Positions 7,429-50,423 are shown, counted from the stretch's first letter. The stretch is 64,000 bases of DNA from an uncultured Gammaproteobacteria bacterium (GCA_964617045.1 CAZTVZ010000003.1:32257-96256), one strand, 5' to 3'. The notes: a model not told the origin generated them from the letters alone. A program made the numbers and translations.

Positions 7429-7433
7429 TTAAA

Positions 7434-23038: not shown

Positions 23039-23088
23039 TTAGCACTAATTTAGCAAGAGTGATAGCACTTGTCAAGAGGGAGTGCTAT
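23039..23088 (-). promoter_or_regulatory. hrcA-operon promoter (TTGACA-17-TAAATT) flanked by two CIRCE-like inverted repeats
   Basis: On the minus strand the -35 is at 23070-23075, overlapping the murJ stop, and the -10 at 23047-23052. CIRCE-like element 1 is ATAGCACTC-N9-AAGTGCTAT (23062-23088). Element 2 is CTATCACTC-N9-TAGTGCTAA (23039-23065). Both are compared with the consensus TTAGCACTC-N9-GAGTGCTAA. The ATG lies about 14 nt after the -10. Confidence 0.65.
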
Positions 23089-24799
23089 CCGTTGGAGAAG
23101 GTGTCAGTGTTTCGGTTTCTCTTTCTGGAATTGCTCCGACTTTTTTCTTGGCAATTCTTTTTAATAAACTTGCGAAATATATTAGTTCTCTCGACTTGAG
23201 AAGCATCGAAATACCAACATAAATTACCCCCCCCACCAAAATAACCATTATCGTAAGTATCAACAAATTGACCGTATATCTTGTGTCAAGAACAAATTTC
23301 TCGAAAGGTATCTGATTGCTCGCATCAATCTTGTTCATAAAAGACAACTGCTTAATCCAGACCGATCGATCGAAAAACTTTAGAAAAAAATACATTGTAA
23401 AACCGGATACTAACGAAGCAAAGAAAGATTTAGCAAAAGGAATAAATGTTCTTATCCCCTCTCCGTCTCCAATTTTCTTTTCCAAAAGAACAAACAATGT
23501 AATGGTTTGCAGAGAAGCGGCAAAAGAAAACGCCGCAGCCAATGCCCATACGGGTAATCCAAAATATTTAATCAAAATTAAATCCAAAATAATATTGATA
23601 GAAAGGGTAATCAGAGATACCGCAACGGGAGTCCTTGTATCGTGAAGGGCATAAAAACTTCTCGCTAAAACAGAGTTCGCGGCTTGGAAAAATACCCCAA
23701 AAGCAAAAGCAGACACAACCATTCCCGTTTGAACGGTCGATTCCCAACTGAAAATATCGGTGCCGAAAATAAGTCTTACAATCGGAATTCTTAAAACAAT
23801 GAGGACCGTAGCGATCGGCATTATTAAGAACGCTATTTGATACAGTGCACCAAAAAGCGTTCTTTTAAATTGGGTTCTGTCATCCGACTGCCTGGCCAAC
23901 GTAGGAAGAGCAGCTTTTGCGATCGATGTTCCAAATAAACCCACCGGAAGAAGTTGCACTGTATTCCCAAACGTAAAGAATGTATAAGAAGCAGTCGAAA
24001 TAATCGATGCTAAAGAGAGCTCGACCGATTTGGCAATCTGCAAAAATGACACCTCGATTATTCTGGGGAGTGCAAGCTTGCCGATCTTTTTAACATCTTC
24101 CGTAATTCTAATAATCGGTTTTATTCTGAATCCAAGTTTAATCGCGAGGGGAAGTTGAACGGCAAAATGGCAAAATGCTCCGAAGGCAACACCGATTGTC
24201 GGACCCATCAGTCCCATTGTCGGTGATAATACAACTGTTCCTAGTATTATCCCCAGGTTGTAAAAAAGTGGGGCTATAGCCGGAACAATAAATCTTCTTG
24301 AAGATTCCAAAACCGCGGTAAGAACATAACTTATTACAAAAAATCCTTGTGCGGCAAACAATATTCTGGTTAAAGATACTATTGTGTCACGGTCTGCTCC
24401 GGTAAAGCCTGGGGCAAGAATTCCATACAAATGTCCGGAGAAAAACGCGATTACCAACGCCATGACCACAAAAATAATCAATCCGATATTGGCAATTGTT
24501 CCCGCGATTTCCCAAGCATCTTTAGATCCTTTTTTTAAAGATTTGGTAAAAACAGGGATAAAAGCAGAAGCAAAAGTACCGAATACCAAAACCTCAAAAA
24601 TTAAATCGGGTAATCTAAAGGCTGCGAAAAAGAGAGATAGCTCGTTTGGTTCGAAAAAGTGCGCCAGAGCTCTTTGTCTGACAAGTCCAAGCACCCTTGA
24701 GGCAATCGTCATAAACATAATGATCGTTGCCGCGGAAAGGACAGAGCTTTGAGGGGAAGAAAATATCTTTTTCCCTTTGTTGATAATGTCGTTCACCAT
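23072..24799 (-). CDS. murJ: lipid II flippase MurJ (MviN)
   Basis: 575 aa and polytopic. The N-terminal sequence SAATIIMFMTIASRVLGLVRQRALAHFF...AFRLPDLIFEVLVFG is the MurJ signature. Confidence 0.85.
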   Translation of the reverse strand: MVNDIINKGKKIFSSPQSSVLSAATIIMFMTIASRVLGLVRQRALAHFFEPNELSLFFAAFRLPDLIFEVLVFGTFASAFIPVFTKSLKKGSKDAWEIAGTIANIGLIIFVVMALVIAFFSGHLYGILAPGFTGADRDTIVSLTRILFAAQGFFVISYVLTAVLESSRRFIVPAIAPLFYNLGIILGTVVLSPTMGLMGPTIGVAFGAFCHFAVQLPLAIKLGFRIKPIIRITEDVKKIGKLALPRIIEVSFLQIAKSVELSLASIISTASYTFFTFGNTVQLLPVGLFGTSIAKAALPTLARQSDDRTQFKRTLFGALYQIAFLIMPIATVLIVLRIPIVRLIFGTDIFSWESTVQTGMVVSAFAFGVFFQAANSVLARSFYALHDTRTPVAVSLITLSINIILDLILIKYFGLPVWALAAAFSFAASLQTITLFVLLEKKIGDGEGIRTFIPFAKSFFASLVSGFTMYFFLKFFDRSVWIKQLSFMNKIDASNQIPFEKFVLDTRYTVNLLILTIMVILVGGVIYVGISMLLKSRELIYFASLLKRIAKKKVGAIPERETETLTPSPTDSTPS

Positions 24800-24800
24800 C

Positions 24801-24829
24801 TTGAGTTTTTAGCCTCATTAGATTATACT
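24801..24829 (+). promoter_or_regulatory. sigma70-like promoter for rpsT (TTGAGT-17-TATACT), leaderless arrangement
   Basis: The -35 is at 24801-24806 and the -10 at 24824-24829. The rpsT ATG lies at 24836, only 6 nt after the -10. Confidence 0.45.
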
Positions 24830-24835
24830 CTCGTC

Positions 24836-25126
24836 ATGCCTGTAACGAAAACAGCCAAAAGAGCCCTTCGTGGTTCCAAACAAAAATTGTCAATCAACAC
24901 TTCCATAAGAGCATCGCTGGAAGCGGCTATTCGTATCGCCAAAAAATCAAAAACCGCAGAAAAAGTAAGAGCGGCAGTAAAACTTGCAGACAGAGCAGCC
25001 AAGAAAAACACAATTCACAAAAATAAAGCATCGAGAATAAAAAGCATGCTTTCGAAATTGGCTCCGACAACAAAATCGGCAGAAAAAAAGACAGTCGCAA
25101 AGAAAACAACCAAGGCTAAAAAATAA
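24836..25126 (+). CDS. rpsT: 30S ribosomal protein S20
   Basis: MPVTKTAKRALRGSKQKLSINTSIRASLEAAIRIAKKS... is Lys/Ala-rich and about 96 aa. The six-frame ORF begins 29 codons upstream, inside murJ. Confidence 0.85.
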   Translation: MPVTKTAKRALRGSKQKLSINTSIRASLEAAIRIAKKSKTAEKVRAAVKLADRAAKKNTIHKNKASRIKSMLSKLAPTTKSAEKKTVAKKTTKAKK

Positions 25127-25188
25127 ACTTCTTCAAGCCATTTTCATATGATATAGTGGGTTTAGACGCCTAGAGCGTTTATGTTGCT

Positions 25189-25752
25189 ATGGCTGCCCAA
25201 AAAGGCTCAAAACTGATAAATCTTCTACCGCAAGAGGAATTTGCCAATTCCACAATTGGTCGTGTGTTTACGTGGGCAATGAGTACCTTCAGAATTATCG
25301 TTATTGGTATGGAGATGGTCGTCATGGTTGCTTTTCTTTCTCGTTTCTGGTTGGATGCCAGAAATGTTGATTTAAACGACATAATCAAACAAAGATCGGC
25401 TGTGATTGCCGCCCAATCCGATTTTGAAAAAGAATTTAGAGATCTTCAAAAAAGAGTTAAGGTTTTTTCCGGAATAACCGGTGTGGAAAAACTTCCTTCC
25501 GAACAAATTACAATTATTACTTCTTATATACCAAACGATGTCCGACTTGAGGCAATTAACCAGTCGGGTGAAAATTTTCAAATCAGAGGAAATTCTTTTA
25601 ACGAAATATCTATAAGCCAATTTATTGTTAACCTTGAAAAAAGCGGAAATTATGACAAGGTTCAGGTTTCAACACTCGATTCGGATCAAGAAGAGGGCGG
25701 ACTGTTTACATTTACTTTGAGTTTATCCCCCAAGAAAGGAGCATCTAAATAA
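25189..25752 (+). CDS. pilN: PilN-like type IV pilus assembly protein
   Basis: The conserved N-terminal INLLP motif (KLINLLPQEEF) is followed by a single TM and a periplasmic-type domain. Length is 187 aa. Confidence 0.6.
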   Translation: MAAQKGSKLINLLPQEEFANSTIGRVFTWAMSTFRIIVIGMEMVVMVAFLSRFWLDARNVDLNDIIKQRSAVIAAQSDFEKEFRDLQKRVKVFSGITGVEKLPSEQITIITSYIPNDVRLEAINQSGENFQIRGNSFNEISISQFIVNLEKSGNYDKVQVSTLDSDQEEGGLFTFTLSLSPKKGASK

Positions 25753-26406
25753 ATGGCACTCGGCTGGAGAAAAGATTACCTAAGATATCGTGAGCAATTT
25801 CTTAACGTTGTAAAACTTTACCAAAAAAGACAGGACTTAAGAATCTATCTTGAAGTAATTTTGTCTTTACTGACAATTATCTTTTTTGCTTTCTTTGCCT
25901 TAAGACCAACCATTCTGACAATATCTCAACTCTACAAAGACATTCAGGCAAAGGAGGAAGTTGTGCAAAAACTGGAAGAAAAAATAAACAATCTCGAATT
26001 GGCACAAGAATTGGTTGCCGAAAAACAAACAGTAATCGAAATTGCCCGACTGTCTGTTCCTGGCGAACCAACACCGGAAAGTTTTGCCAGACAAATTGAA
26101 GGACTATCACAAACAACAGGTATTACTCTATCGGGAATCTCGGTTGGAGAAGTAACAATACTCGGTGAAGCAAGAAAAACCGCTCAGGATAAAGATTTAA
26201 AACCTCTGCCCGAAGGCTCAATGGGAATGCCATTTACGATCAGTATATCGGGAGAATACGGAAATCTGTTTAATTTCCTCAGAAATTTGGAAAACCTGAG
26301 AAGGCCTGCTTCTATTGATAATATTTCCATTTCATCAACGATAAACGATGAGGGTATTGTAAAAATAACAATGATCGTATCGGGAAGGGTACCTTTTCTC
26401 AAATGA
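25753..26406 (+). CDS. pilO: PilO-like type IV pilus assembly protein
   Basis: Starts 1 nt after pilN. It has an N-terminal TM, a coiled-coil (QAKEEVVQKLEEKINNLELAQELVAEKQ), and a C-terminal ferredoxin-like region. Length is 217 aa. Confidence 0.5.
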   Translation: MALGWRKDYLRYREQFLNVVKLYQKRQDLRIYLEVILSLLTIIFFAFFALRPTILTISQLYKDIQAKEEVVQKLEEKINNLELAQELVAEKQTVIEIARLSVPGEPTPESFARQIEGLSQTTGITLSGISVGEVTILGEARKTAQDKDLKPLPEGSMGMPFTISISGEYGNLFNFLRNLENLRRPASIDNISISSTINDEGIVKITMIVSGRVPFLK

Positions 26407-26744
26407 AAAAATTTAAACCGCCAAGCTTTATCACAATATTAATTCTTACTGCAATTACCGTTGTCTTCTGGATATTTTTTGGTGTCGTAAGAATATTTAC
26501 AAAAGCCGATGAGGAAACTGTACCTGCAGCAATTCTTGCACCGCTATCCCCAACACTTGACAAGGATGTTCTGGATAAACTTCCTTCAAGGGTATATTTT
26601 GATGATAGTCAGATTTCAACAAATGTTGTTAGTTCACCCACACCGACGCCTTCAATCCAAATTCCCACTCCGACAGAAATTCTCGAAGCAACAGAGTCTG
26701 CAACACCAACGGCAACAGAAGGAGCAGTTATAGATGAAGAATAA
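26403..26744 (+). CDS. small bitopic membrane protein with acidic Thr/Pro-rich ectodomain (hypothetical)
   Basis: 113 aa. A TM (FITILILTAITVVFWIFFGVV) is followed by PTPTPSIQIPTPTE. It overlaps pilO by 4 nt and the next gene by 11 nt. Confidence 0.4.
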   Translation: MKKFKPPSFITILILTAITVVFWIFFGVVRIFTKADEETVPAAILAPLSPTLDKDVLDKLPSRVYFDDSQISTNVVSSPTPTPSIQIPTPTEILEATESATPTATEGAVIDEE

Positions 26745-28092
26745 GATTCCAACATTGATTGGTTTAGTAGTTCTTATATTTGGTTTAGCCGCCGGTGTTT
26801 TCCTTGTGCAAAACACAACAATTTTCAGATTGGGAGCTTCAGGAGAAAATGCACCTGAAAATGTAAGAATAACCAATATCTCGGATGTATCATTTACAGT
26901 CAGTTGGACAACATCAAAAGAAACCACGGGATTTATCAAATACGGAGAATCCGACAACTTGGGTAAAACCAAAAATGACGAACTTTCCGAAAAAGGATAT
27001 ACACATTACGCGACGATAAGCGGAGTAAAATCCGAATCTAATTACTATTTCAAAATAAATTCGGAGGGAGTCGATTATGACAACAATGGTGTTCCTTGGG
27101 AATTGACTACTGGACCCAATATACCCACAAACACCAGCCAAACGACCATCTCCGGAACGATACTCGAACAAACAGGTAATCCATCAAAAAATGCAATTGT
27201 ATACGTGACCATTGCAGGAAGCTCCCCTCTCTCGTCAACAACGTCTCAAAACGGATCATGGGTAATTCCGCTAAATTTTGCCAGAACACAGGACTTGTCT
27301 GCGTTTATCTTGATACAAGAATCTTCATCATTACTTGAAATATCCGTTAATGCTGGACCGAAAGGAATTGCTTCCGCACAAATATTTCCTCAATCGGCGA
27401 AACCGGTTCCTGCAATTACTCTTGGAACAACAAACGATTTTAGAAGCAACCCCCCGAGCTCTGTCGACGGAATACCTCAAGCTAACTTAACTATTCCAGA
27501 AATAACAGAGAAGAAATCCGGTTTTAATGTTGATGCCACAGTGGCGTCAAACGATAATAAAACGGTTACTTTAGAAAGCGTTGCAGACGGAGAAAAAATT
27601 TCAAGTGAAAAGCCCGAATTTTTCGGAAGTGGACCTTCTGGTACAACTATTACCATTACTGTTGAAAGCGATCCTCAAAGCGGTGAGGTAAAAGTCAACA
27701 ATTCCGGTGATTGGAATTGGACACCACCGGCAGGATTAGAACCCGGAACTCACACCGTTACAATTACATGGCGTGATGCTGCGGGGATATTAAGAAAACT
27801 TACAAGATCTTTTGTTGTTGAGGCATCAGAAAATCCATCTTTTACCGCGACCCCTTCTGCAACAACAACGGTAACACCAACTGCAACAAAAACACCTACA
27901 CCATCTTTAACACCAACTTCTTCGCCAACACCAACAGCATCTGTTTCAGCAACAAAAACACCTACACCATCTGCAGCACCTACAACACCCGAATCGGGCA
28001 GCTTGACCCCAACAATAATTCTATTTATGATGGGTATAGCGATCATTTTGTTCGCAACTGTTGCTTGGAAGAAATCTGAAATAAATGCCTGA
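26734..28092 (+). CDS. cell-surface protein: N-terminal TM anchor, FN3-like + Ig-like domains, Thr/Pro-rich linker, C-terminal sorting-signal-like TM tail
   Basis: Shows an FN3/purple-acid-phosphatase-N-like motif (VSFTVSWTT...TGFIKYGES...HYATISGVKSESNYYFKI). A long Thr/Pro linker (TATPSATTTVTPTATKTPTPSLTPTSSPTPTASVSATKTPTPS) is followed by TPESGSLTPTIILFMMGIAIILFATVAWKKSEINA. Confidence 0.6.
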   Translation: MKNKIPTLIGLVVLIFGLAAGVFLVQNTTIFRLGASGENAPENVRITNISDVSFTVSWTTSKETTGFIKYGESDNLGKTKNDELSEKGYTHYATISGVKSESNYYFKINSEGVDYDNNGVPWELTTGPNIPTNTSQTTISGTILEQTGNPSKNAIVYVTIAGSSPLSSTTSQNGSWVIPLNFARTQDLSAFILIQESSSLLEISVNAGPKGIASAQIFPQSAKPVPAITLGTTNDFRSNPPSSVDGIPQANLTIPEITEKKSGFNVDATVASNDNKTVTLESVADGEKISSEKPEFFGSGPSGTTITITVESDPQSGEVKVNNSGDWNWTPPAGLEPGTHTVTITWRDAAGILRKLTRSFVVEASENPSFTATPSATTTVTPTATKTPTPSLTPTSSPTPTASVSATKTPTPSAAPTTPESGSLTPTIILFMMGIAIILFATVAWKKSEINA

Positions 28093-29590
28093 CCAAAATC
28101 AAACTGACCCAAATGCTAATCCCATAGAACCTGTTTCCCCTCAGGCTCCCCCCCTACCAATGCCAGAAGAAATTCCCCCAATTACACCGGTTGTTGAAGA
28201 AGCAACACCGAATACCGAACCCATAAAAGAGAATGCCCTGTCCGAAGAAAATGTCCAACCGGCTTTTATGGCAACAGATTCTCCCCCTCCCCCTCCAATC
28301 CTTGAAACTGAAAACCCGACAAGAGAAGAAGTTGAAGGAAAAAGGGAAGATGATAATATGCCTGTTCCTGAAAAACCGAAAAAGAAATCTAAAGGTTTGG
28401 TTATTGGGCTTGTTGCAACTCTTCTTTTGATTGCAGGCTTGGGAGCAGGTGTTGTTTTGGTCAGACAACAACAGGACGTCAGGGAAAAAGCAGTCAGTTG
28501 TGGAGGAGCAGGTGCAACATGCCGCTTAAACGGCGATTGTTGTTCCGGAAAATGTAATTTAACCGGATATTCCGGAACTTGTGCAGCCCCAACAGGAACT
28601 CAAACACAATGTGTAAGCTCTGGAGGTGCCTGCACTTCAACTTCCCAATGTTGTGGAAATTTAAGCTGTAAGGGTGGAAAGTGTTTAACCGAAGAAGCAA
28701 GCACTCCCACTAAAACACCTACTGCAGCCGCGTGTATTGCCATAGGTCAAAGGTGTGCATCGGGAGAAACATGTTGTAATAACGGGAAATGTATTGACAA
28801 CAAGTGTTCACTATCTGGAACCAGTACACCGACTGCTCAACCCAACTGTTCCAAGGAGGGAGAGTTCTGTGGAATTGGAAGTGCAAACACAGGTCCGGTA
28901 AATTGTTGTAGCGGATTAAAATGTGACAATGGATATTCCATAGTCCACGCTACAGGATCAACCGGAAAATGTATAAAGGATGCTCCAAGCTGTGTACCTT
29001 TAGGGAAAAGGTGTGCATCAGGAGAAACATGTTGTAATAACGGGGTATGTTCCAATAATGTATGTGTCGCAACCACCCCTCCTCCGACCACAACCTTGTG
29101 TCCCAAATCATGTGTTGCGTCACCTAAATCAAATTGTAAACCCGGCACTTTCTATCCCAACGAAAGTACAAGCTTGGCTTATGGAGATTGTGGAGGAACA
29201 GGATTCAATGAATATTGTTGCGATCCTATTGACGGGGCACCAACAAAAATTCCGACATCAACAACAACTTCTACTCCCAAACCACCATCGGGTGATTACT
29301 GCCAATGTTTAAATGTTGTCGCATATGACACAAACTGGAACCTGCTAACAACAGATGCGTTGAAAAATCTTAAAGCTGGAGACAAAATAAGGTTCACGGT
29401 AAAAGGGCGGGCTTCAAGCGGAAAGTTCGATAAAGCAAAGTTTAAGATAAATGGACAGGAAACTGCCGAAATGACAACAAAGAAGCCAAACACCGAAGAG
29501 TTCTATTACGAATATACAATTCCTGCAAATGTATATTCATTTAAGATTGACGCCAAAATACATCATGATCAGAAAGGATGGTCAAACTAA
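28085..29590 (+). CDS. membrane-anchored secreted protein with five tandem 6-Cys knottin/hevein-like modules
   Basis: A Pro-rich N-terminal tail precedes a TM (LVIGLVATLLLIAGLGAGVVLV). Five modules follow, each C-x6-C-x5(11)-CC-x3-4-C-x4-15-C (for example CGGAGATCRLNGDCCSGKC...C and CIAIGQRCASGETCCNNGKCIDNKC). A C-terminal ~110-aa beta-rich domain ends the protein. There is no C-terminal TM. Confidence 0.6.
   Translation: MPDQNQTDPNANPIEPVSPQAPPLPMPEEIPPITPVVEEATPNTEPIKENALSEENVQPAFMATDSPPPPPILETENPTREEVEGKREDDNMPVPEKPKKKSKGLVIGLVATLLLIAGLGAGVVLVRQQQDVREKAVSCGGAGATCRLNGDCCSGKCNLTGYSGTCAAPTGTQTQCVSSGGACTSTSQCCGNLSCKGGKCLTEEASTPTKTPTAAACIAIGQRCASGETCCNNGKCIDNKCSLSGTSTPTAQPNCSKEGEFCGIGSANTGPVNCCSGLKCDNGYSIVHATGSTGKCIKDAPSCVPLGKRCASGETCCNNGVCSNNVCVATTPPPTTTLCPKSCVASPKSNCKPGTFYPNESTSLAYGDCGGTGFNEYCCDPIDGAPTKIPTSTTTSTPKPPSGDYCQCLNVVAYDTNWNLLTTDALKNLKAGDKIRFTVKGRASSGKFDKAKFKINGQETAEMTTKKPNTEEFYYEYTIPANVYSFKIDAKIHHDQKGWSN
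28750..29044 (+). repeat. internal 36-nt near-identical duplication (28750-28785 and 29009-29044) inside the Cys-module gene
   Basis: aggtgtgcatcgggagaaacatgttgtaataacggg differs from aggtgtgcatcaggagaaacatgttgtaataacggg at a single position. Both encode RCASGETCCNNG in modules 3 and 5. Confidence 0.8.
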
Positions 29591-29592
29591 TT

Positions 29593-30144
29593 ATGAAAAA
29601 TAAAGCCGTATCAATAATAATTTTGGTAATAACTTTACTTTTGGCGGGAGTTGCGATATTCACCGCTGTCAGATTGTACCAACTTAGACAAGAGTCTGTG
29701 GCTCCAACTGCACCAGAAAGTGAACCTGCTGCTGCTGCACCCGAATCATGTAGCTCGCTCTCCTTTACGATTGGTGAACCAACCGGAACACCGACAAACA
29801 CAATTACAACTACGCCAATTGTTAAAGATTGTGCACAGTCGTGTGCAGCCAGTAGTGAATGTAAATCCGGACTTATTTGTTCCAACGGATCATGCAGAAA
29901 TCCTTCTTGTACATCCGAAACAGATTGTGTCTGTCCAACAGCAACAACCACAACAACTTCAACACCTACCGCGACATCGACTGTAACCTCAACAGTAACG
30001 ACAACTGCAACTTCGACATCGACTGTAACCTCAACAATTACGCCAACGGCAACTCTACCAGATGCAGGCATTCCTGCTCCGACAGTATTCGGAATTAGTT
30101 TCGGTGTCCTACTCCTTATTATTGCCGTTGCTCTCGCGCTTTAA
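29593..30144 (+). CDS. small Cys-rich surface protein with Thr-rich linker and LPDAG + C-terminal TM sorting-signal-like tail
   Basis: Has a signal-anchor (MKNKAVSIIILVITLLLAGVAIFTAV) and an 8-Cys module (CAQSCAASSECKSGLICSNGSCRNPSCTSETDCVC). A poly-Thr linker is followed by TLPDAGIPAPTVFGISFGVLLLIIAVALAL. An alternative start at 29578 is possible. Confidence 0.5.
   Translation: MKNKAVSIIILVITLLLAGVAIFTAVRLYQLRQESVAPTAPESEPAAAAPESCSSLSFTIGEPTGTPTNTITTTPIVKDCAQSCAASSECKSGLICSNGSCRNPSCTSETDCVCPTATTTTTSTPTATSTVTSTVTTTATSTSTVTSTITPTATLPDAGIPAPTVFGISFGVLLLIIAVALAL
29930..30060 (+). repeat. low-complexity Thr/Ser codon repeat (linker-coding), including a direct 21-nt repeat acatcgactgtaacctcaaca x2
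   Basis: ACN/TCN-rich. Similar linker-coding tracts occur at about 27850-27990 and about 30740-30900. Confidence 0.7.
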
Positions 30145-30192
30145 TTGTTGATAAAATTTTTTCATAGGGCAAAATGTATTAAGGCTTAATCT

Positions 30193-30981
30193 ATGTTCGA
30201 TCAAAACCAACAAAATCAAATTCCTTTCACCCCACCACCGGTCCCTCAGGGAGAACCGGTTCCTCCACAACCAATGGACATGCCACCCATGCCTCAAATG
30301 GGTATCGCAACTCCTCCTCCCGGAGAAAAGAAAGCCGCCAGCGGAAAAATAATTGCAACCGTGTTTGCAATTTTCATCCTTGTCGGTGGACTTGCGGCAG
30401 GATTGATTCTTGTAAGAAGAAATCAAGACTTAAGAGAGCAAGCAGAAACAACCTGTGTTGAAGAATGCCCGGGTGTCGATTCCGGTGGAAGAAGCGTTTT
30501 AAGAAACTGTACACCGCCAGAAGCCGACGGCACTTCTGACGATCAAATCTGTAACTTGGCTGGCAGAACAGGACAGTGTGGAGGACAACAATATTGTTGT
30601 CCGGCAGCAGGAGGGGTTTGGACAACAAATATGACAGCGTGTACGCCCAAGGAATCTGTGTGCAACGATTCCATAGACAATGACAATGATGGATTAACCG
30701 ATTGTACCGACTCTGATTGTTCGACTTCGACATATTGCCAAGCAACACCTACCGAAACACCTTCCATTACATCGACGCCGTCGGCAACAACAACGATAAG
30801 CCCAACTTCAACCGCAACTTCGACGGCAACAATAACAGCAACAAAAACACCGACTTTGACATCAACTGCAACAGCAACTGTCAGCCCACCCATTCCAGAT
30901 TCAGGTCTTCCACTTCCAACCGTGATAGCATTTGGTTTTGGGGCACTACTTGTAATAATCTCCTTGGTACTTGTCCTTTAA
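30193..30981 (+). CDS. Cys-rich surface protein: Pro-rich N-tail, TM, hevein/knottin-like and TSP3-like Ca-binding Cys motifs, Thr linker, IPDSG + C-terminal TM tail
   Basis: The N-terminus is PFTPPPVPQGEPVPPQPMDMPPMPQ, with a TM (IIATVFAIFILVGGLAAGLILV). It contains CNLAGRTGQCGGQQYCC (C-x8-C-x5-CC) and CNDSIDNDNDGLTDCTDSDC (DxDxDGxxDxxD). It ends PPIPDSGLPLPTVIAFGFGALLVIISLVLVL. Confidence 0.5.
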   Translation: MFDQNQQNQIPFTPPPVPQGEPVPPQPMDMPPMPQMGIATPPPGEKKAASGKIIATVFAIFILVGGLAAGLILVRRNQDLREQAETTCVEECPGVDSGGRSVLRNCTPPEADGTSDDQICNLAGRTGQCGGQQYCCPAAGGVWTTNMTACTPKESVCNDSIDNDNDGLTDCTDSDCSTSTYCQATPTETPSITSTPSATTTISPTSTATSTATITATKTPTLTSTATATVSPPIPDSGLPLPTVIAFGFGALLVIISLVLVL

Positions 30982-31008
30982 ACCTCGTCAAATTATGATT
31001 TCTGTAAT

Positions 31009-33042
31009 ATGGATTATCTGAGCATTTTATATTGGTGGATATTTTTATTTTTACTGGGGCTTATAAACTACCCTTTTTCGTTCATTCTTCTGAGGAAAAA
31101 CTCCGATCGCGGTTACGGATTATCCAAAATTATATCTCTTCTTCTGATTAGCTACATCCTTCTTTTGGGTTCTTCGCTCAAGTTGTTTCCTTTTACGATA
31201 TATTCTTCCCTTTCCGCGTTGCTTCTTCTTGTTTTTGTTAACACACTAATCTTTCTAAAAAATAAAAGGGAAATTATTCGTGACACAAAACTAACTATTC
31301 GATTAATTATCTTTCAGGAAATATTATTTTCCTCCGCATTACTCTTTTGGTCTTTTATTAAAATGCACAACCCTGACATTCGAAGCTTGGAAAAATTTAT
31401 GGATTACGGGTTTATAAACTCGATCTTAAAAAGCCCTTGGCAACCTGCTCAGGACATGTGGTTTGCCGGAGGAAAAATAAATTATTATTATTTCGGACAT
31501 TTCTATACTGCAGTTGCCACAAGATTGTCTTTTCTGCCCAGCTCAATTACTTACAACCTCATGCTGTCCACAATTTTAGGGTTTTTAGTTAACGGAGCCT
31601 ATTCTCTGGTGCACACGATTTTTTCATCTCTCCCTAAAGGGATCAACAAAAAAGCGGTTTCTGCAGGGATAATTTCATTTCTGCTTGTATCTTTCGCGGG
31701 AAATTTCCATACGCCGATATATGCCTTTCAAAAAGGAATCGATAAATATTGGTATCCGGATGCGACAAGATTCATCGGTTATAATCCCGACACCAACGAC
31801 AAAACAATACATGAATTTCCCCTCTACTCTTTCGTCGTGTCTGATCTGCATGCCCACTTATTGGGAATTCCAATCGTAATTCTTTATTTGAGTTTCCTGT
31901 TCATGATTTTCGGCTCTTCCGAAAATATAACATTTCGAAAACGCATCCCGTTCTTGCTGTTCCCAGGATTTTTATTCGGGCTTATGTTTATGACCAACAC
32001 CTGGGATTTTGCCTCATATATGCTAATCACCGGAGTTTGCCTCGTTATGTCACGGATATCTCTATTTAAAGATATTGGCAATATTTCTCAAGCCGTCTAT
32101 GACATTTCTTTAAACATTATTATTCTTCTTGTTATTGGCTTGATTACTGCGCTTCCGTTTATCCTTAATTTCGAATCAATTGCGGAGGGTGTGCAATTTG
32201 TAACTTCACGCTCCCCGGTTTGGCAATTGTTAATCTTATGGGGACTTCCGATACTACTTCTTGTTTTCTTTTCGGCTTTTATTATCGCAAAAAAGAAAGC
32301 CGAAAAATCAGATCTCTTTATTTTGGGACTATTGGTATCCTCTATTCTTCTCATTATCATCCCTGAAATCATATACGTAAAAGACATTTATATTGCATCT
32401 CATTACAGGGCCAATACTATGTTTAAAATTACCTATCAAGCATTTGTAATAGGTTATCTTTCGAGTGGATATGTTGCATTAAGAATAATCACTGGAATAA
32501 AAAATATTCCGTTTCGTATATTGTCCACAACGGTTTTTACTTTGCTATTTTCTGCAATGCTGACGTATCCGTTTTTTGCAGTAAATTCATATTTCGACAA
32601 ACTGGAAAACAAAACTGGCTTAAATGGAGAAACTTGGATTAAAAACACCTATCCCTCAACATATCGTGCTATTGAATATTTAAGGAATACCGTTTCCGAA
32701 CAAAAAATAATTACTGAAGCATCTGGAAACAGCTATACGGACTACAACGTAATTTCCAGCTATACTGGCCTTCCAACAATACAAGGGTGGTTTGTCCACG
32801 AGTGGTTATGGAGAGGAAGTGCAGAATTGCCCTCAGAAAGAGTCTCTGATCTGGAGATTCTATACACATCGAAAAATATTAACGAAGTAAAAAAGATAAT
32901 AGAAAAATATAAAGTTAACTACTTAATATACGGTTTTTTTGAAAAAGAAAAATATCCCAACAACAACGAACTATTAATAGACAGTCTCGGAGAAATAGTA
33001 TTTACCGATGGTGATACTACTATTTATTCAGTTGATTATTAA
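31009..33042 (+). CDS. DUF2298 / 'YYY'-domain polytopic membrane protein (GT-C-type putative glycosyltransferase)
   Basis: 677 aa with more than 12 predicted TMs. The signature Tyr triplet GGKINYYYFGHFYTAV is present. A C-terminal soluble domain follows. Confidence 0.65.
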   Translation: MDYLSILYWWIFLFLLGLINYPFSFILLRKNSDRGYGLSKIISLLLISYILLLGSSLKLFPFTIYSSLSALLLLVFVNTLIFLKNKREIIRDTKLTIRLIIFQEILFSSALLFWSFIKMHNPDIRSLEKFMDYGFINSILKSPWQPAQDMWFAGGKINYYYFGHFYTAVATRLSFLPSSITYNLMLSTILGFLVNGAYSLVHTIFSSLPKGINKKAVSAGIISFLLVSFAGNFHTPIYAFQKGIDKYWYPDATRFIGYNPDTNDKTIHEFPLYSFVVSDLHAHLLGIPIVILYLSFLFMIFGSSENITFRKRIPFLLFPGFLFGLMFMTNTWDFASYMLITGVCLVMSRISLFKDIGNISQAVYDISLNIIILLVIGLITALPFILNFESIAEGVQFVTSRSPVWQLLILWGLPILLLVFFSAFIIAKKKAEKSDLFILGLLVSSILLIIIPEIIYVKDIYIASHYRANTMFKITYQAFVIGYLSSGYVALRIITGIKNIPFRILSTTVFTLLFSAMLTYPFFAVNSYFDKLENKTGLNGETWIKNTYPSTYRAIEYLRNTVSEQKIITEASGNSYTDYNVISSYTGLPTIQGWFVHEWLWRGSAELPSERVSDLEILYTSKNINEVKKIIEKYKVNYLIYGFFEKEKYPNNNELLIDSLGEIVFTDGDTTIYSVDY

Positions 33043-34045
33043 CCCACGATCTTAAATCTTCCCAAGATCCGGAAGCAGGTATAAAAACATATTGATGATC
33101 ATACTTAGAACTAATAGGAGGATTAAAAAGATATTCTTCCGGAATATTATGTTGTCTAATATCATTTCTTGCGTTAACAACAAGTTTTCCTAACACCCCC
33201 AGTGAACCAAATTTGAGATCTGTTTCAATATATTTTTCTGCCACCCTCCATGATTCATACAATTTCACCGGATTTAAAAGAATTTGGTAAGTAAGCATTT
33301 TGTCTTTGATCGAATTTATTACTTTTTGTTGTCTTGCCGAACGAGCCAAGTCAGTTCCTTCATCCCCCTGTGCGTTTCTTGATCTCACAAATTTCAGAGC
33401 AGTATCGCCATTCATTTTCTGGATTCCTTTTTCAAAAACAATCGTTTCGTATCTGCATTTCAATTCTTTGTCGCCGTCACAAAGATCATTCTCTTTACCC
33501 TTGATGGGATACTTCGGATCTGTAAATGCATTTTCCACATCAACATCTATTCCGCCGATCACATCAACTATTTCCGTAAATCCGTCGAAATCAATAACAA
33601 TCCCGTAGTTTATCTTTTCTTGTAACAATTCAGAGGCAATATCTTTTGCAAAGGATAATCCTGTTGTTTCATCTTTTTGCTTTCCCCAATAATAGGCACT
33701 GTTTATTTTCGCTCTAATGGATGGGATCCAAACATCCCTGGGAATAGAAATTGTATCAATCTTGGATTTTTCGGAAGAAATACTTACAAGCATTATGGAA
33801 TCGGTCAAGTCAGATCCATCGTGTCCTGCTCCTGATTTTCCGAGAACCAACAAGTTAACCCTTCCTTCCTGGTTTTCGATTTTTGTCAAATCGGTATTAA
33901 CATAATCCATAGCCAGGGAGAAAAACTTTCCAAAATCCATTTTTGCTAAGAAGAAGTAAAGAAACATAAAGAGTGATATGACAAATAACAAAAACAGCCC
34001 GATTCTTATAGCTTTTCGTGAAGGTATTTTAGATTCTTTTTCCAT
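33020..34045 (-). CDS. LytR-CpsA-Psr (LCP) family cell-wall glycopolymer ligase
   Basis: After an N-terminal TM comes the LCP core VNLLVLGKSGAGHDGSDLTDSIMLVSIS...IPRD. The C-terminal region is extended. It converges on the YYY gene and overlaps it. Confidence 0.85.
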   Translation of the reverse strand: MEKESKIPSRKAIRIGLFLLFVISLFMFLYFFLAKMDFGKFFSLAMDYVNTDLTKIENQEGRVNLLVLGKSGAGHDGSDLTDSIMLVSISSEKSKIDTISIPRDVWIPSIRAKINSAYYWGKQKDETTGLSFAKDIASELLQEKINYGIVIDFDGFTEIVDVIGGIDVDVENAFTDPKYPIKGKENDLCDGDKELKCRYETIVFEKGIQKMNGDTALKFVRSRNAQGDEGTDLARSARQQKVINSIKDKMLTYQILLNPVKLYESWRVAEKYIETDLKFGSLGVLGKLVVNARNDIRQHNIPEEYLFNPPISSKYDHQYVFIPASGSWEDLRSWVNNQLNK

Positions 34046-34090
34046 GCTAGAATTATTCTTCGATAGAGATATATTTTATTCTAGCAGGTA

Positions 34091-35929
34091 ATGACTAACA
34101 AGCTCCTAACAGATTTAAACAAAGAACAAAACGAGGCTGTCTCCTATTTAGGAACTCCCCTCCTTGTTTTGGCCGGTGCCGGAAGCGGTAAAACAAGGGT
34201 ACTTACTTACAGGGTTGCTTATCTTATTTCAGAGGGAGTTGCCAAATCCGAAAACATTCTTCTTCTTACTTTTACCAACAAGGCTGCAGGCGAGATGAAA
34301 GAAAGATGCGTAGATCTTATTGGAGAGGTTCCTTTCTTTGCTGGGACCTTCCATTCATTTTGTGCCAAGGTGTTAAGACAGGACGGAAGTGTAATAGGAA
34401 TTCCAAAGGGCTTTTTGATTTATGACACCCAAGACCAAAAGGACGCAATCAAAGATATACTCGAAAAGTTTAATCTCTCTTCTGACTCTTATAACCCAAA
34501 CGGTATTTTGTCTGCAATAAGCGATGCCAAGAATCAAATGTTGACACCTCTTCAATATGCAGAATACGCCCAGGGTGAATGGCAGGAACAAATATTCAAA
34601 ATCTGGCTGGAGTACGATAAATACCTAAAAGAAGTCGGGGCACTTGATTTTGACGACCTTATTATGAAAACGATGGAACTCTTCAAATACTACCCCGAAA
34701 TTCTTAAAAGATGGCAGGAAAAAATTAAATTTACTTTCGTTGACGAATGGCAAGATACAAATAAAGTTCAATACAATTTAATCAAACTAATTGTCGGTGA
34801 CAGGGGCAGTCTCACAGTAGTCGGTGATGCTTCACAATCGATTTACAGCTGGAGAGGGGCAGATTATCGCAATATCACCTATCTAATGAAAGACTATCCG
34901 AAAATTAAAATCGTCAACCTGGAACAAAACTACAGATCGACACAAAACATCTTAACTGCCGCAAACGCGGTAATTTCCAAAAACACTTCTCATCCGATTC
35001 TAAAGTTGTGGACCAGTAATGCCGTTGGAGAAAGGCTAAAACTCTATACCGCAAGAAACGGAATGGATGAGGCAGAATACGTTGTTAACGAAATAAAAGG
35101 TTTAAATATGTGGGGATATTCGCTCAAAGACATTGCGGTGCTATACAGAACAAATGCCCAATCCCGTGTTCTGGAAGAAGCCCTTCTCCACTCCGGAATA
35201 CCTTATATCCTTGTTGGGGGTACAAGATTCTATGAAAGAAAAGAAATTAAAGACGTTCTCTGTTACCTAAGACTGATTGCCAATCCACGAGATTCCGTTT
35301 CCAAAAAAAGATCTCTTAAACTAGGTAAAAGGAGATTGGAAAGATTTGAGGAATATAAAAAAGAGCTTGTTGATCCGGCTTCATACGCAACTTTGGATTT
35401 AATGGATGGTGTTCTTGCCAAAACAAAGTACTTGGATTTGTTTGAAAAAGAAACCGAAGAAAACTTGGCAAGACTGGAAAACATTAAAGAATTAAGATCG
35501 GTTGCGTCTCAATTTCCGGACATAAACGATTTTTTGGAAAATGTAGCCTTGGTTGAAGCCGAACAGGAAGCCACGATTAAAAACCAGGACAAGTCGGAAA
35601 AAGTTACCTTAATGACACTTCACTCCGCAAAGGGTCTTGAGTTCCCCGTTGTGTTTATCGTTGGTATGGAAGAGGGCATCTTTCCCCATTCTCGCTCCCT
35701 TAACGACAAATCTCAACTTGAAGAAGAACGAAGGTTGGCTTACGTCGGAATTACGAGAGCCAAAGAACTTTTATATCTTTCCTATGCCGCAAGGAGGTTA
35801 TTTTTCGGAGAACAACTCAGCAATCCACCCTCCAGATTTATCATTGAGATACCCGAGAATTTACTCCAGGGGGTCGGAACAAGTAGAATATTAGATAGTT
35901 ACAAAGACGACATAGACTTGGATATATGA
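34091..35929 (+). CDS. ATP-dependent DNA helicase, UvrD/PcrA family (short)
   Basis: Shows LLVLAGAGSGKTRVLTYRVAYLI (motif I), DEWQDTN (II), GDASQSIYSWRGA (III), LEQNYRST (IV), and HSAKGLEFPVVF/YVGITRAK (V/VI). Confidence 0.9.
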   Translation: MTNKLLTDLNKEQNEAVSYLGTPLLVLAGAGSGKTRVLTYRVAYLISEGVAKSENILLLTFTNKAAGEMKERCVDLIGEVPFFAGTFHSFCAKVLRQDGSVIGIPKGFLIYDTQDQKDAIKDILEKFNLSSDSYNPNGILSAISDAKNQMLTPLQYAEYAQGEWQEQIFKIWLEYDKYLKEVGALDFDDLIMKTMELFKYYPEILKRWQEKIKFTFVDEWQDTNKVQYNLIKLIVGDRGSLTVVGDASQSIYSWRGADYRNITYLMKDYPKIKIVNLEQNYRSTQNILTAANAVISKNTSHPILKLWTSNAVGERLKLYTARNGMDEAEYVVNEIKGLNMWGYSLKDIAVLYRTNAQSRVLEEALLHSGIPYILVGGTRFYERKEIKDVLCYLRLIANPRDSVSKKRSLKLGKRRLERFEEYKKELVDPASYATLDLMDGVLAKTKYLDLFEKETEENLARLENIKELRSVASQFPDINDFLENVALVEAEQEATIKNQDKSEKVTLMTLHSAKGLEFPVVFIVGMEEGIFPHSRSLNDKSQLEEERRLAYVGITRAKELLYLSYAARRLFFGEQLSNPPSRFIIEIPENLLQGVGTSRILDSYKDDIDLDI

Positions 35930-36927
35930 TCAGACTGGCAAACGAAAACGATAAAGGTGATTTCAATAAAGTATCTACCCATCCCCTGCAATCATGGGAG
36001 TGGGGAAACTTTCGAAGCAAATGGGGAAATAAAATTGTTAGACTCGTTGAAGAGAAAAACGGAAAAATAACAAAGGCGCTCCAGATAATTTTCTCAGTCA
36101 TTCCGCATACCACTTACACCGTAGGAACTGTTATTAAGGGGCCTGAATTGTCGCAGGAATTAATCGACAAGGTAAAGTCTATAGCCCGAGAATATAATGC
36201 AATATTTATAAAATTTGAACCCAACTTAAAGAAAAACGATAAACAAATAGAAATTTACAAGAAAAATTCTTTCGTTAAAGGTAAAAGGCTGTTTACTCCA
36301 ACTACTTTCGAAATAGATCTTACAAAATCCGAAGATGAACTATTGAAAGGTTTTTCCCAAAAAACCAGATATAACATTCGGTTGGCACAACGTTACGGGG
36401 TAATAGTAAAAGAAGACTCTTCGCAAAAAGCTTTTAACAAATATCTCGAACTTACAAAAGAGACAGTTTCCAGGCAAGGATTCTATGCACATACGCAGAA
36501 ATATCACAAGCTCATGTGGGAAGAACTAAACTCCGGTAAAAACAAAATTGCCCATTTACTAACAGCCAATTACAAAGGGGAGATTATCACCACGTGGATT
36601 CTTTTTGCTTGGAACAATTGTCTATATTATCCTTACGGAGCTTCAACAGAAAAATTCAAAAACGTAATGGCCAACAACTTAATGATGTGGGAGGCAATTA
36701 AGTATGGTAAAAAATTACATTTGAAAACGTTTGATCTTTGGGGAAGAGAAGAGGGAAAGGGTTTTACCAAGTTTAAAGAAGGATATAATCCGCAGGTTGT
36801 TGAGTTCTCCGGATCATGGGATATGCCGACATCTAATCTGTATAATTTTTACAACATCCTCGATGGGCTAAGATGGATCGTCTTAAAACTCAGGTCCAGA
36901 GTGTTGAAGATAAAACCATCTTTTTAA
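35926..36927 (+). CDS. FemAB-family peptidoglycan interpeptide-bridge aminoacyltransferase (FemX-like)
   Basis: 333 aa. QKTRYNIRLAQRYGV is the FemAB signature region. The length and secondary-structure pattern are consistent with tRNA-dependent lipid II aminoacyltransferases. Confidence 0.65.
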   Translation: MIRLANENDKGDFNKVSTHPLQSWEWGNFRSKWGNKIVRLVEEKNGKITKALQIIFSVIPHTTYTVGTVIKGPELSQELIDKVKSIAREYNAIFIKFEPNLKKNDKQIEIYKKNSFVKGKRLFTPTTFEIDLTKSEDELLKGFSQKTRYNIRLAQRYGVIVKEDSSQKAFNKYLELTKETVSRQGFYAHTQKYHKLMWEELNSGKNKIAHLLTANYKGEIITTWILFAWNNCLYYPYGASTEKFKNVMANNLMMWEAIKYGKKLHLKTFDLWGREEGKGFTKFKEGYNPQVVEFSGSWDMPTSNLYNFYNILDGLRWIVLKLRSRVLKIKPSF

Positions 36928-41670: not shown

Positions 41671-43062
41671 ATGGGAAACAAATTTTTTGTCACAACAGCA
41701 ATCGACTACACTAACGATGTAATCCATATTGGACACGCTTATCAAAAAATAATTGCCGACATATTTGCCAGATATCATCGACAAAAAGGCGAGGATGTCT
41801 TTTTTTTGACAGGAACGGACGAACACGGAGGAACAAGTGAACAGGCCGCAAAAAAAGAGGGCATAACCCCAAGTGAATATGTAAACAGGATATCCGAGAA
41901 AGACAGGCTTGAACTTGATTCTTTAAATATTTCATACGACCGATTTATAAGGACAACGGATTTAGACCATAAAGAGCTGGTCAAAGAGTTTTATGAAAAA
42001 GTCAAATCCCAAGGAGATATATACAAAGGAGAATATGAAGGATTCTACTGTACAGGTTGCGAATCAGCAAAAAGAAATAACGAAATAGTAGACGGCAAGT
42101 GCCCTCTTCATCCAACAAAAGATTTGGAAACAATTAAAGAAGAAAACTATTTTTTCAAATGGTCAAAATACAAAGATTTTTTGATAGATCTGATTCAAAA
42201 CAATCCCGAATTTGTACAACCTGAATCCCAAAGAAAAAATATGTTGGGATTTTTAAAAGAAGGTCTGGAAGATATTGCAATATCAAGACCAACATCAAAA
42301 GTCTCTTGGGGAATTCCGGTTCCCGATGACCCCGACCAAGTTATCTATGTTTGGTTTGATGCACTAATAAACTATATTACCGGAGCTCCCGAATGTTGGC
42401 CTGCAGATATTCATATTTTGGGAAAAGATAACGTCAGGTGGCATGCTCTTCTGTGGCCGGCAATGCTTAAATCAGCAGGCTTTGAATTGCCAAAAACAAT
42501 TTATGGGCACGGTTTTATTACACTCAATGGAGAAAAGATCAGTAAAAGCAGGGGTAATGTTATTAGACCATCTGAACTTACCGAAAAATATGGAGTAGAT
42601 TCCGTAAGATATTACTTCGCAAAATTTGGGCCTTGGCTTGAAGATACCGATCTTTCAATTTCGAAATTGGAAGAAGCATACAATTCCGACCTTGCAAACG
42701 GATTAGGGAACTTGGTGGCAAGAGTAGCCAAACTCTGCGAAAAAAGCGGATTAAAATTTGAAACAATAGAGGAATGTTTTTATCCGGAATTGGAAAAACA
42801 TTTAGATAATCTTTCACCCCAACTTGCTTTGGAATATATTTGGAATACAAAAATTCAAGAAGCCAACAAATATGTTGACGAAAAGCAACCCTGGGCATTA
42901 AGCGGAGATCAATTAAAAGAAGTGCTCGAAAACCTAGTCAATGCAGTCAGACAAATTGCTTTTAACATTAAACCCTATTTACCCGAAACATCTGATAAAA
43001 TAAGCGAGCAGTTTAATCGGGGCAGGATCTCCGCAGAAGACCCGCTCTTCCCAAGAATTTAA
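41671..43062 (+). CDS. metG: methionine--tRNA ligase, minimal form
   Basis: Shows VIHIGHAY (HIGH), GTDEHG, a Zn knuckle (CTGC...CPLH), and KISKSRGN (KMSKS). At 463 aa it has no C-terminal tRNA-binding extension. Confidence 0.9.
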   Translation: MGNKFFVTTAIDYTNDVIHIGHAYQKIIADIFARYHRQKGEDVFFLTGTDEHGGTSEQAAKKEGITPSEYVNRISEKDRLELDSLNISYDRFIRTTDLDHKELVKEFYEKVKSQGDIYKGEYEGFYCTGCESAKRNNEIVDGKCPLHPTKDLETIKEENYFFKWSKYKDFLIDLIQNNPEFVQPESQRKNMLGFLKEGLEDIAISRPTSKVSWGIPVPDDPDQVIYVWFDALINYITGAPECWPADIHILGKDNVRWHALLWPAMLKSAGFELPKTIYGHGFITLNGEKISKSRGNVIRPSELTEKYGVDSVRYYFAKFGPWLEDTDLSISKLEEAYNSDLANGLGNLVARVAKLCEKSGLKFETIEECFYPELEKHLDNLSPQLALEYIWNTKIQEANKYVDEKQPWALSGDQLKEVLENLVNAVRQIAFNIKPYLPETSDKISEQFNRGRISAEDPLFPRI

Positions 43063-44553: not shown

Positions 44554-44596
44554 TTTATATTTTCCTCACAACTAAGTTATACTAATTAAGAATCCC

Positions 44597-46099: not shown

Positions 46100-46136
46100 T
46101 TGTCAGTCGAACTCACTTAGAGTAAAATTACGCAAG

Positions 46137-46496
46137 ATGAAGTTTCCTTCTAAACAATTTATTGATACAAAAAAGCTACCCTTTTTGACTTACATCTATG
46201 CCGCATCGATTATTAATATTTTAATTATCGGAACTACTTTTCTCATCCAGAATTTACTTCCTCCAGAAATACCTCTCTATTACGGACTAGCCGAAGGGCA
46301 AGAACAAATAGCTAAATCCATATTTCTGTTTGTTCCCAATTCGATTTCTCTGTTGATATTAATAATAAATTCCGCAATAGCCTCTTATATTAAACAGGAT
46401 TATTATAAAAAAATACTAATTGTCGCGGGATTAATATCAACCTTTTTCGCATCAATCACAGTATTTAAAATAGTGTTTTTGGTCGGAAGTTTCTAA
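46137..46496 (+). CDS. small polytopic membrane protein (hypothetical; possible accessory subunit of the glycosylation cluster)
   Basis: 119 aa with 3-4 TMs. Confidence 0.35.
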   Translation: MKFPSKQFIDTKKLPFLTYIYAASIINILIIGTTFLIQNLLPPEIPLYYGLAEGQEQIAKSIFLFVPNSISLLILIINSAIASYIKQDYYKKILIVAGLISTFFASITVFKIVFLVGSF

Positions 46497-46498
46497 AC

Positions 46499-49394: not shown

Positions 49395-49446
49395 CCTCTT
49401 TTGAAGATTAGGTTCAAATGATTTAAAATAAGCCTTACCAAGTTGT

Positions 49447-49518
49447 GGCCTGGTGGTGAAGTGGAAACACGGCTGTCTGCAAAACAGCTATGCGCGGGTT
49501 CGATTCCCGCCCAGGCCT
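49447..49518 (+). tRNA. tRNA-Cys (anticodon GCA)
   Basis: The sequence is GGCCTGGTGGTGAAGTGGAAACACGGCTGTCTGCAAAACAGCTATGCGCGGGTTCGATTCCCGCCCAGGCCT. The acceptor stem is a 7-bp GGCCTGG/CCAGGCC pair. The anticodon stem-loop is GCTGT-CTGCAAA-ACAGC and the T arm GCGGG-TTCGATT-CCCGC. CCA is not encoded. Confidence 0.85.
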
Positions 49519-50389: not shown

Positions 50390-50394
50390 GGCAC

Positions 50395-50423
50395 ATTTTA
50401 GCCTGAAAAGAGTCGTTTGCCAA
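50395..50423 (-). promoter_or_regulatory. sigma70-like promoter for galU (TTGGCA-17-TAAAAT), leaderless arrangement
   Basis: On the minus strand the -35 is at 50418-50423 and the -10 at 50395-50400. The ATG lies 6-9 nt downstream. Confidence 0.45.

Follow-up and report, generated by a model that had tools for sequence, protein, structure and literature searches.

Probable sorting signals of three adjacent surface proteins

How are three adjacent surface proteins, which end in nearly superimposable tails consisting of a short Pro/Gly motif and a hydrophobic helix, handled by the cell that makes them, and which enzyme acts on their C-termini? This question is raised by a stretch of DNA of 64,000 nucleotides (GCA_964617045.1, CAZTVZ010000003.1:32257-96256, recorded as from an uncultured Gammaproteobacteria bacterium; referred to below as the window; G+C content approximately 39%), in which the genes for these proteins, viz. 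T1, T2 and T3, lie close together on the plus strand. In an earlier note on this DNA the tails were described as sorting signals that are not LPXTG, and they were likened to the VPDSG-CTERM class of exosortase substrates, with the alternative that they form a divergent substrate motif for a sortase encoded at 1833-2507. The results described here make it probable that the tails are LPXTG-type sortase sorting signals of a form specific for the lineage Patescibacteria/Microgenomates, which would be cleaved by a sortase.

T1 (26734-28092, 452 amino acids (aa)) consists of an N-terminal hydrophobic anchor, fn3, CarboxypepD_reg and Big_13 immunoglobulin (Ig)-like domains, a Thr/Pro linker and a tail (27985-28089), in which the motif TPESG is followed by SLTPT, a helix and the basic end WKKSEINA (...TPESGSLTPTIILFMMGIAIILFATVAWKKSEINA). 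In T2 (29593-30144, with the open reading frame (ORF) listed from 29578; 183 aa) an N-terminal anchor of type B (LAGVAIFTAVRLYQLRQESVAP) is followed by a small Cys-rich module, a Thr-rich linker and a tail of 29 aa (30055-30141) made up of LPDAG, IPAPT and the helix (LPDAGIPAPTVFGISFGVLLLIIAVALAL). The listed ATG of T2 at 29578 overlaps the end of a 501-aa ORF, and a second ATG at 29593 is located directly after the stop codon of that ORF; because the homologue P0034 (183 aa, with the motif LPEAG) begins at the equivalent of M6, the true start of T2 is probably this residue. T3 (30193-30981, 262 aa) has a Pro-rich N-terminus, an anchor of type A (...GLAAGLILVRRNQDLREQA), a middle part in which a CPGxDGVLRNCTPPEADG...CGGQQYCCP domain precedes an acidic double-disulfide repeat, a Thr/Pro linker and a tail of 29 aa (30892-30978) consisting of IPDSG, LPLPT and the helix (IPDSGLPLPTVIAFGFGALLVIISLVLVL).

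The three ORFs and their tails agree with what was quoted in the earlier note, including the Thr/Pro linkers that precede each tail, Thr, Ser, Pro and Ala together making up 80-88% of the 50 residues before the motif in each protein. A hydrophobic membrane-spanning segment follows the motif in all three, after which T2 and T3 contain zero charged residues and T1 alone ends basic, and near its N-terminus each protein also has a hydrophobic stretch, bordered by conserved residues of type A or type B, that may serve as an export signal. Strings of residues derived from the tails that are candidate sortase substrates are ...TATLPDAGIPAPT and ...PPIPDSGLPLPT. A six-frame scan of the whole 64 kb identified a motif of the Px[TSA]G type joined to a C-terminal hydrophobic stretch nowhere outside the ORFs of T1-T3. 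At the DNA level the mean column identity of the three tails is 65%, and T2 and T3 are unlike at many third-codon positions. These many synonymous differences rule out that their likeness stems from gene conversion or a recent duplication, and the likeness of the tails is therefore maintained, i.e. selected, at the protein level.

A family of terminal tails

A profile of 32 positions, based on 13 tails, was used in an exhaustive search of 1.84e9 protein cluster representatives (E <= 1e-3). It matched 105 of these representatives, the best with an E value of 4e-9, and each of the 105 matches runs up to the final residue of its protein. In 102 of the 103 family tails, motif position 1 (P1) is exactly 29 residues away from the C-terminus, although this fixed length is in part a selection effect, as the profile search prefers ungapped matches. 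Within the motif, Pro at P2 and Gly at P5 are found in 100% of the 103 tails, P1 is occupied by Leu (60%), Ile (29%) or Val (11%), and P4 by Thr (39%), Ser (34%) or Ala (24%), these three residues together accounting for 97%, while P3 is variable (E 29%, V 26%, Q 18%, D 18%). After the Gly the consensus reads [T/I/V]-[S/D]-W75-P95-T97-x-x-G99-x-G84-x-G99-...-S82-L-L-L94-A91-L78, where the numbers are percentages; two examples of its beginning are LPQSGTDWPT and IPVTGTDWPT. A total of 19 hydrophobic residues follow the WPT, and Asp and Glu are absent from the last 20 positions.

The pentapeptides in homologues of T3 include IPDSG, IPVSG, IPESG, LPESG, IPVTG, LPATG, IPETG and IPATG, to which the relatives in 26 species-representative genomes add LPETG, LPQTG, LPASG, LPNSG, LPNAG, LPQSG, LPDAG, LPEAG and LPRTG. 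In one Collierbacteria locus, two paralogues have near-identical tails with LPETG in one of them and LPDAG in the other. The orthologues of T1 carry IPDSG (P0012), LPQSG (L111) and VPVTG (L112), or LTDAG (L019 and L028), and a basic end is present in all of them. The species with tail-bearing relatives are from Pacebacteria, Collierbacteria and Shapirobacteria, which belong to the OP11/Microgenomates within the candidate phyla radiation (CPR)/Patescibacteria (now Minisyncoccota at NCBI), and the host of T1-T3 is hence placed in the CPR/Microgenomates, a group of ultra-small bacteria.

The proteins that bear the tail are otherwise diverse. Their passenger domains include DUF11 (n=8), Cohesin (n=7) and fn3 (n=4) as well as Cyt-b5, SLH and Big_7, the majority having no Pfam match, and tailed genes also occur at loci (L113-L115) that are unrelated to the PilN/PilO locus in which T1 lies, beside VKOR, Fic, ABC/RND and other genes. 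The earlier note had regarded restriction of the tail to these paralogues as an outcome that would speak against a sorting signal; the tail family is instead present at unrelated loci and on unrelated passengers, always at the protein end, and the architecture of a C-terminal sorting signal suggested there is borne out. Judged from its sequence and distribution, the tail is a modular, terminal signal of the sorting type. One of the tailed proteins, P0035, which contains a Cohesin domain and the motif IPVTG (L113 3618-6252), is encoded close to a VKOR gene, from which a single small ORF separates it. This placement fits the MdbA/VKOR disulfide system, enriched in CPR (Meheust et al. 2019, PMC6744442), and the Cys-rich passenger domains.

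The probable type of sorting signal

The window motifs TPESG, LPDAG and IPDSG retain the Gly of LPXTG and its Pro but not the Thr at P4, and this Thr is present in orthologues and paralogues (viz. IPVTG, IPETG, LPETG and VPVTG). As the Asp and Ser of the window motifs are not conserved in the family whereas the Pro and Gly are, the motif is to be read as [LIV]Px[TSA]G, which is LPXTG-like. Hence, the statement that these tails are not LPXTG is not supported, given that orthologous tails read IPVTG, IPETG, LPATG and LPETG and that LPETG and LPDAG occur within a single Collierbacteria genome. The resemblance to VPDSG-CTERM, in turn, is coincidental, in view of the variable Asp, the model searches described next and the lack of a basic cluster after the helix in T2 and T3.

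The search with sorting-signal models that was suggested in the earlier note gave a divided result. For the family, the LPXTG_anchor model TIGR01167 is the sole sorting-signal model that recurs, with weak matches to 24 of 66 family tails at E <= 10 (best 9.6e-4); the remaining matches among these 66 are to EF0750_LPXTG (n=6), LAVTG (n=1), Vip_LPXTG (n=1) and PGF_CTERM, the archaeosortase model (n=1, E 0.27). At E <= 10, neither the VPDSG-CTERM nor the PEP-CTERM model matched any of the 66 family tails or of the 3 tails in the window, and the GlyGly-CTERM (rhombosortase) model matched 0 of the 66, although the HMMER filters may drop very weak matches of this kind. The window tails themselves fare less well, as described below.

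In comparison with the classical LPXTG signal and its housekeeping, class A-like sortase (TIGR01167/PF00746; PF04203), the family shares the Pro at P2, the Gly at P5 and Leu, Ile or Val at P1, the terminal hydrophobic helix, the occurrence on many unrelated surface proteins and an unlinked His-Cys-Arg sortase, and the orthologues of T1 retain the basic tail as well. It differs in that P4 is Ser or Ala in 58% of the tails, the length is fixed at 29 residues with G-x-x-W-P-T and GxGxG...SLLLAL-COOH, 101 of 103 tails are without a basic end, and the window sortase passes no class A-F model. Ser or Ala at P4 has a precedent, because LPXAG and LPXSG proteins occur naturally in staphylococci: S. aureus has 2 LPxAG proteins (PMC3436756) and S. 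haemolyticus displays both LPXSG and LPXAG proteins (PMC7137321). In addition, a laboratory-evolved sortase, eSrtA(4S-9), prefers LPXSG (PMC9782347). The staphylococcal SrtA substrates thus share with the present family the replacement of Thr at the scissile position by Ser or Ala; however, in staphylococci these residues are rare beside a Thr majority, whereas here they are found in 54 of the 61 Leu-type motifs with T, S or A at P4. The IPxTG/VPxTG signals of class C pilins are similar in having Ile or Val at P1, as 40% of the tails have, and the solved sequence nearest to the window sortase is of class C. They differ in that the sortase is not beside its substrates and scores 46 against the class C cutoff of 160, and a search for a YPK(N)-type pilin motif in T1-T3 found none. 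An interpretation of T1-T3 as sortase-assembled pilins was considered and rejected, as they are without this motif.

The candidate sortase

The candidate processing enzyme is encoded on the same contig at 1833-2507 (minus strand), approximately 24 kb from its proposed substrates, and consists of an N-terminal transmembrane (TM) helix and a catalytic domain. It matches PF04203 with 77.1 bits (cutoff 26.6) and TIGR01076 with 51.5 bits (cutoff 39.35). Of the NCBIfam models for classes A-F none reaches its cutoff (C 46.2/160, D 39.4/165, E 39.3/160, F 23.8/166), only the generic sortase_fam being passed, and the closest solved structure by sequence is that of a class C pilus sortase (E 4e-10). The catalytic triad is intact, with His131, Cys200 (in LVTCVPPGDP) and Arg217 invariant in an alignment of 14 family members. 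Homologues number 1934 at E <= 1e-10, those with names being sortases of Patescibacteria or Woesebacteria, and a sortase family has been described as 'near ubiquitous in Microgenomates' (Meheust et al. 2019, PMC6744442).

Among 43 metagenome loci that span 8 kb or more, 42 have the gene order FtsK-RodZ-AlaRS-orf732-sortase-RuvX-YceG, and because of this constancy the enzyme looks like a core sortase of the housekeeping type. Its proposed connection with the tails is based on the likeness of the motif to known sortase substrates, the presence of both on one contig and their distribution at the level of the phylum. The second option of the earlier note, that the tails are a divergent substrate motif for this sortase, is the best-supported reading.

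Two further features were observed in this region. Between the TM helix and the catalytic domain of the sortase, in residues 62-70, the positions D62-x-T64-x-x-S67-x-W69-F70 are invariant; this segment might act like the lid of class C sortases, but an AlphaFold2 model of the enzyme (from an alignment of 14 sequences; mean pLDDT 44) is too poor to judge a lid. The gene for a 732-aa protein (2520-4718, minus strand) lies directly upstream of the sortase in 42 of the 43 metagenome loci. The N-terminal half of this protein is cytoplasmic and is followed by a single TM helix and an outer domain, which gives a weak Baseplate_J-like match (E 5e-4); the protein is without a sorting tail and may be a partner of the sortase.

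Contrary observations and alternative explanations

A number of observations weigh against regarding the tails as LPXTG-type signals, and they should be considered together. When the window proteins and the isolated tails of T1-T3 were compared with NCBIfam, no sorting-signal model was matched; two full-length T3 homologues reach 10.1 and 11.6 bits with TIGR01167 against a cutoff of 15.9, and most family tails likewise score under this cutoff. A classical signal has a basic tail, whereas K, R or H after the motif is found in just 2 of the 103 family tails. The P1 residue of T1 is Thr (TPESG) rather than Leu or Ile, and its Collierbacteria orthologue reads LTDAG, without the Pro. Lastly, no sortase is present within 10 kb of the tailed genes in 26 genome loci with T3 relatives, and neither a tailed ORF nor any LPXTG-like C-terminus is present within 10 kb of the sortase in 80 metagenome loci (832 kb). 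However, the latter 80 loci represent one syntenic region and their negative result therefore carries little weight, and the separation of enzyme and substrates is consistent with what is typical of housekeeping sortases.

If the tail were a plain C-terminal stop-transfer anchor, then the protein would remain uncleaved with both of its ends in the membrane, and the motif would serve a structural purpose, for instance as a turn that precedes the helix. In favour of this reading are the lack of model matches for the window tails, the drift of the T1 motif to TPESG and LTDAG, the lack of a gene-neighbourhood link to a sortase, and the helix that reaches the last residue with no basic tail beyond it. 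However, an invariant Pro and Gly at the spacing of LPXTG, a P4 limited to T, S or A in 97% of cases and a fixed length of 29 residues on unrelated passengers exceed what anchoring needs; the only models that recur among the family tails are those for sortase signals, and the conserved sortase would be left in these genomes with no evident substrates. We thus consider a plain anchor unlikely.

It is also conceivable, though quite improbable, that the tails are processed by another sorting enzyme, or by the sortase but with an acceptor that is not peptidoglycan, for instance a lipid or glycolipid, in which case Patescibacteria would have a system of their own merely resembling LPXTG. The signature G-[TIV]-[SD]-W-P-T, GxGxG and S-L-L-L-A-L-COOH, of fixed length (29 aa) and charge-free, is unlike classical signals, and small residues at P4 and P5, a short polar spacer and a hydrophobic end without a cytoplasmic tail recall signals of the glycosylphosphatidylinositol (GPI) type and the archaeosortase type. 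A polytopic protein with a DUF2298 domain is moreover conserved beside tailed genes. However, this protein is exchanged for proteins of PMT types in L111 and is absent at other tail loci, the orthologues of T1 bear the same motif together with a normal basic tail, and Pfam and NCBIfam scans revealed no exosortase, archaeosortase or rhombosortase family among the window proteins.

Exosortase systems are known mainly from diderm bacteria, and the partner of VPDSG-CTERM is probably XrtC rather than the XrtD named in the earlier note. A signal of the VPDSG-CTERM/PEP-CTERM kind cut by an exosortase whose gene lies in another part of the genome is very improbable and is rejected, since all that favours it is the literal likeness of IPDSG and LPDAG to VPDSG (a short motif of Pro, Asp or Glu, Ser and Gly, and then a C-terminal helix), whereas no such model is matched, Asp is not conserved (D 18%), the Arg-rich cluster after the helix is absent, the same scans of the window ORFs contain no exosortase, as had been stated earlier, and these organisms are reported to be without an outer membrane (PMC6744442).

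N-terminal anchors and their coupling to the tail motif

The anchors at the other end of these proteins fall into two types, neither of which matches a Pfam or NCBIfam family. Type A has the consensus '...GxxAGxxLV[RK]QQQ[DN]I[RQ]EKA' (...LVRQQQDIREKA) and type B has '...LAGVAIFTAxRLYQLRQxxVAPxxPxSxP', and the conservation of both is greater than hydrophobicity alone implies. In the window they are located at 29593-29700 (T2, type B), 30330-30450 (T3, type A) and 28360-28480 (type A, in the 501-aa ORF, which lacks a tail). Among P0013-P0115, type A occurs with an [IV]Px[TS]G tail in 40 of 45 cases and type B with an LPx[SA]G tail in 36 of 38, counts that ignore shared ancestry. The residues at P1 and P4 are coupled in a corresponding manner: with Ile or Val at P1, Thr is found 39 times and Ser or Ala 11 times, while with Leu the numbers are 7 and 54 (Fisher p 4.5e-13, which also ignores shared ancestry). 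The two anchor/tail classes could represent two separate sorting routes or destinations.

A more specific proposal, which we put forward tentatively and regard as possible rather than likely, is that these features constitute a two-ended sorting system specific for Patescibacteria, in which a fixed, charge-free C-terminal domain of 29 residues ([LIV]Px[TSA]G-xxWPT-GxGxG-SLLLAL-COOH) is served by a sortase family that accepts or prefers Ser or Ala, and in which there are two classes of anchor and tail.

A conserved cell-wall locus

T1-T3 are part of a locus whose order across Microgenomates is MurJ (minus strand), S20, PilN, PilO, an ORF of approximately 110 aa, T1 (fn3/Ig), the Cys-rich untailed protein, a variable set of tailed proteins, a GT-C-like enzyme, LytR-CpsA-Psr (LCP; minus strand), UvrD and FemAB; it is seen at 23072-36927 in the window, at 2600-19400 in L019, and in L028, L111 and L112. 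Its conserved left border is the lipid II flippase MurJ (23072-24799, minus strand; PF03023, 242.7 bits). PilN (25189-25752, plus strand; 4.5e-10), PilO (25753-26406, plus strand; 3.4e-5) and a 113-aa ORF with a TM segment and a Thr/Pro-rich part (26403-26744, plus strand) come next; in the conserved locus PilN, PilO and the small ORF always immediately precede T1, an arrangement that hints at a connection of the type IV pilus platform with the proposed wall proteins of this locus.

The untailed protein between T1 and T2 (28085-29590, plus strand; 501 aa with 38 Cys) has repeated CxxGxxCCxxxxC modules with no family match and a conserved beta-rich C-terminal domain, and ends in ...HHDQKGWSN. 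Its counterparts are located at 4316-5002 in L111 (ending in ...HHSTLGWF), at 8825-9997 in L112 (...YHSEYGWF) and at 8364-9848 in L019; the end HHxxxGW[SF] is seen in 3 of the 4 loci, that in L019 being ...VSTKP.

Directly downstream of T3 lies the gene for the polytopic membrane protein of the DUF2298/chlor_Arch_YYY kind (31009-33042, plus strand), which is found in the same place in L002, L019 and L028 and showed nothing significant when compared with PDB sequences. Because its position in L111 is held by PMT (PF02366) and PMT_2 proteins (6497-8947 and 10016-11134), it is probably, to judge from this position, a glycosyltransferase of the GT-C type that acts on the Thr/Pro linkers. The LCP glycopolymer transferase (33020-34045, minus strand; TIGR00350, 94 bits) is a further syntenic member of the locus. 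In the GspA/LcpA/SrtA pathway of Actinomyces oris, an LPXTG glycoprotein is glycosylated through an LCP enzyme before it is anchored by sortase; the present locus resembles it in having genes for an LCP enzyme and a membrane glycosyltransferase next to those for sortase-type substrates whose linkers are likely glycosylated, the resemblance here being one of gene neighbourhood alone. A FemAB-family protein (35926-36927, plus strand; PF02388, 98.7 bits) is kept in L002, L019, L028 and L111 and may build an interpeptide bridge in the peptidoglycan, the acceptor that sortases usually employ.

Two other parts of the window (41671-50630 and 55486-57351) are also rich in envelope functions, among them GT2, a PMT_2-like GT-C, GT4 (MraY/WecA-like), a UbiA prenyltransferase, PEGA+SH3, a nucleotidyl transferase, and VanW with PG_binding_4 and G5. 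This wall-related setting, with MurJ, LCP and FemAB in the locus and VanW/PG_binding and GT-C proteins elsewhere, counts in favour of a wall-anchoring role.

Proposed mechanism

With the tails taken as LPXTG-type sorting signals, we infer the following sequence of events. Each protein would be exported by means of its N-terminal hydrophobic anchor, after which the C-terminal helix would keep it in the membrane. Next, the sortase encoded at 1833-2507 would cut the motif [LIV]-P-x-[T/S/A]-G between P4 and its Gly, with formation of a thioacyl intermediate on Cys200, and would transfer the protein to an amine that belongs to lipid II or peptidoglycan; a bridge made by the FemAB-like enzyme may provide this acceptor. 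The Thr/Pro linkers would form stalks through the wall; their O-glycosylation would probably be carried out by the adjacent GT-C-like protein (DUF2298, or PMT in the relative), and the LCP enzyme could participate with the GT-C enzyme in this process.

Significance

A life spent attached to other microbes is presumed for CPR/Patescibacteria, which makes surface proteins central to the biology of this group, although most of these proteins are unannotated. Sortase is enriched in the CPR group (PMC6744442). In the literature searched, no description of the sorting signal of sortase substrates in CPR was found; the two papers in which sortase, Patescibacteria and LPXTG occur together deal with other topics and touch on sortase only in passing. 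As a kind of system, a sortase that acts on an LPXTG-like signal is well known; the form of the signal found here appears to be undescribed. If the proposal of a two-ended system is correct, its sortase would be a natural LPXSG/LPXAG enzyme useful for orthogonal protein ligation, and would thus be of interest to protein engineers, who now rely on laboratory-evolved enzymes (PMC9782347). The tails in the window are missed by the current NCBIfam and Pfam models, and a dedicated profile of 29 residues would allow the wall-anchored surface proteome of Microgenomates to be annotated systematically.

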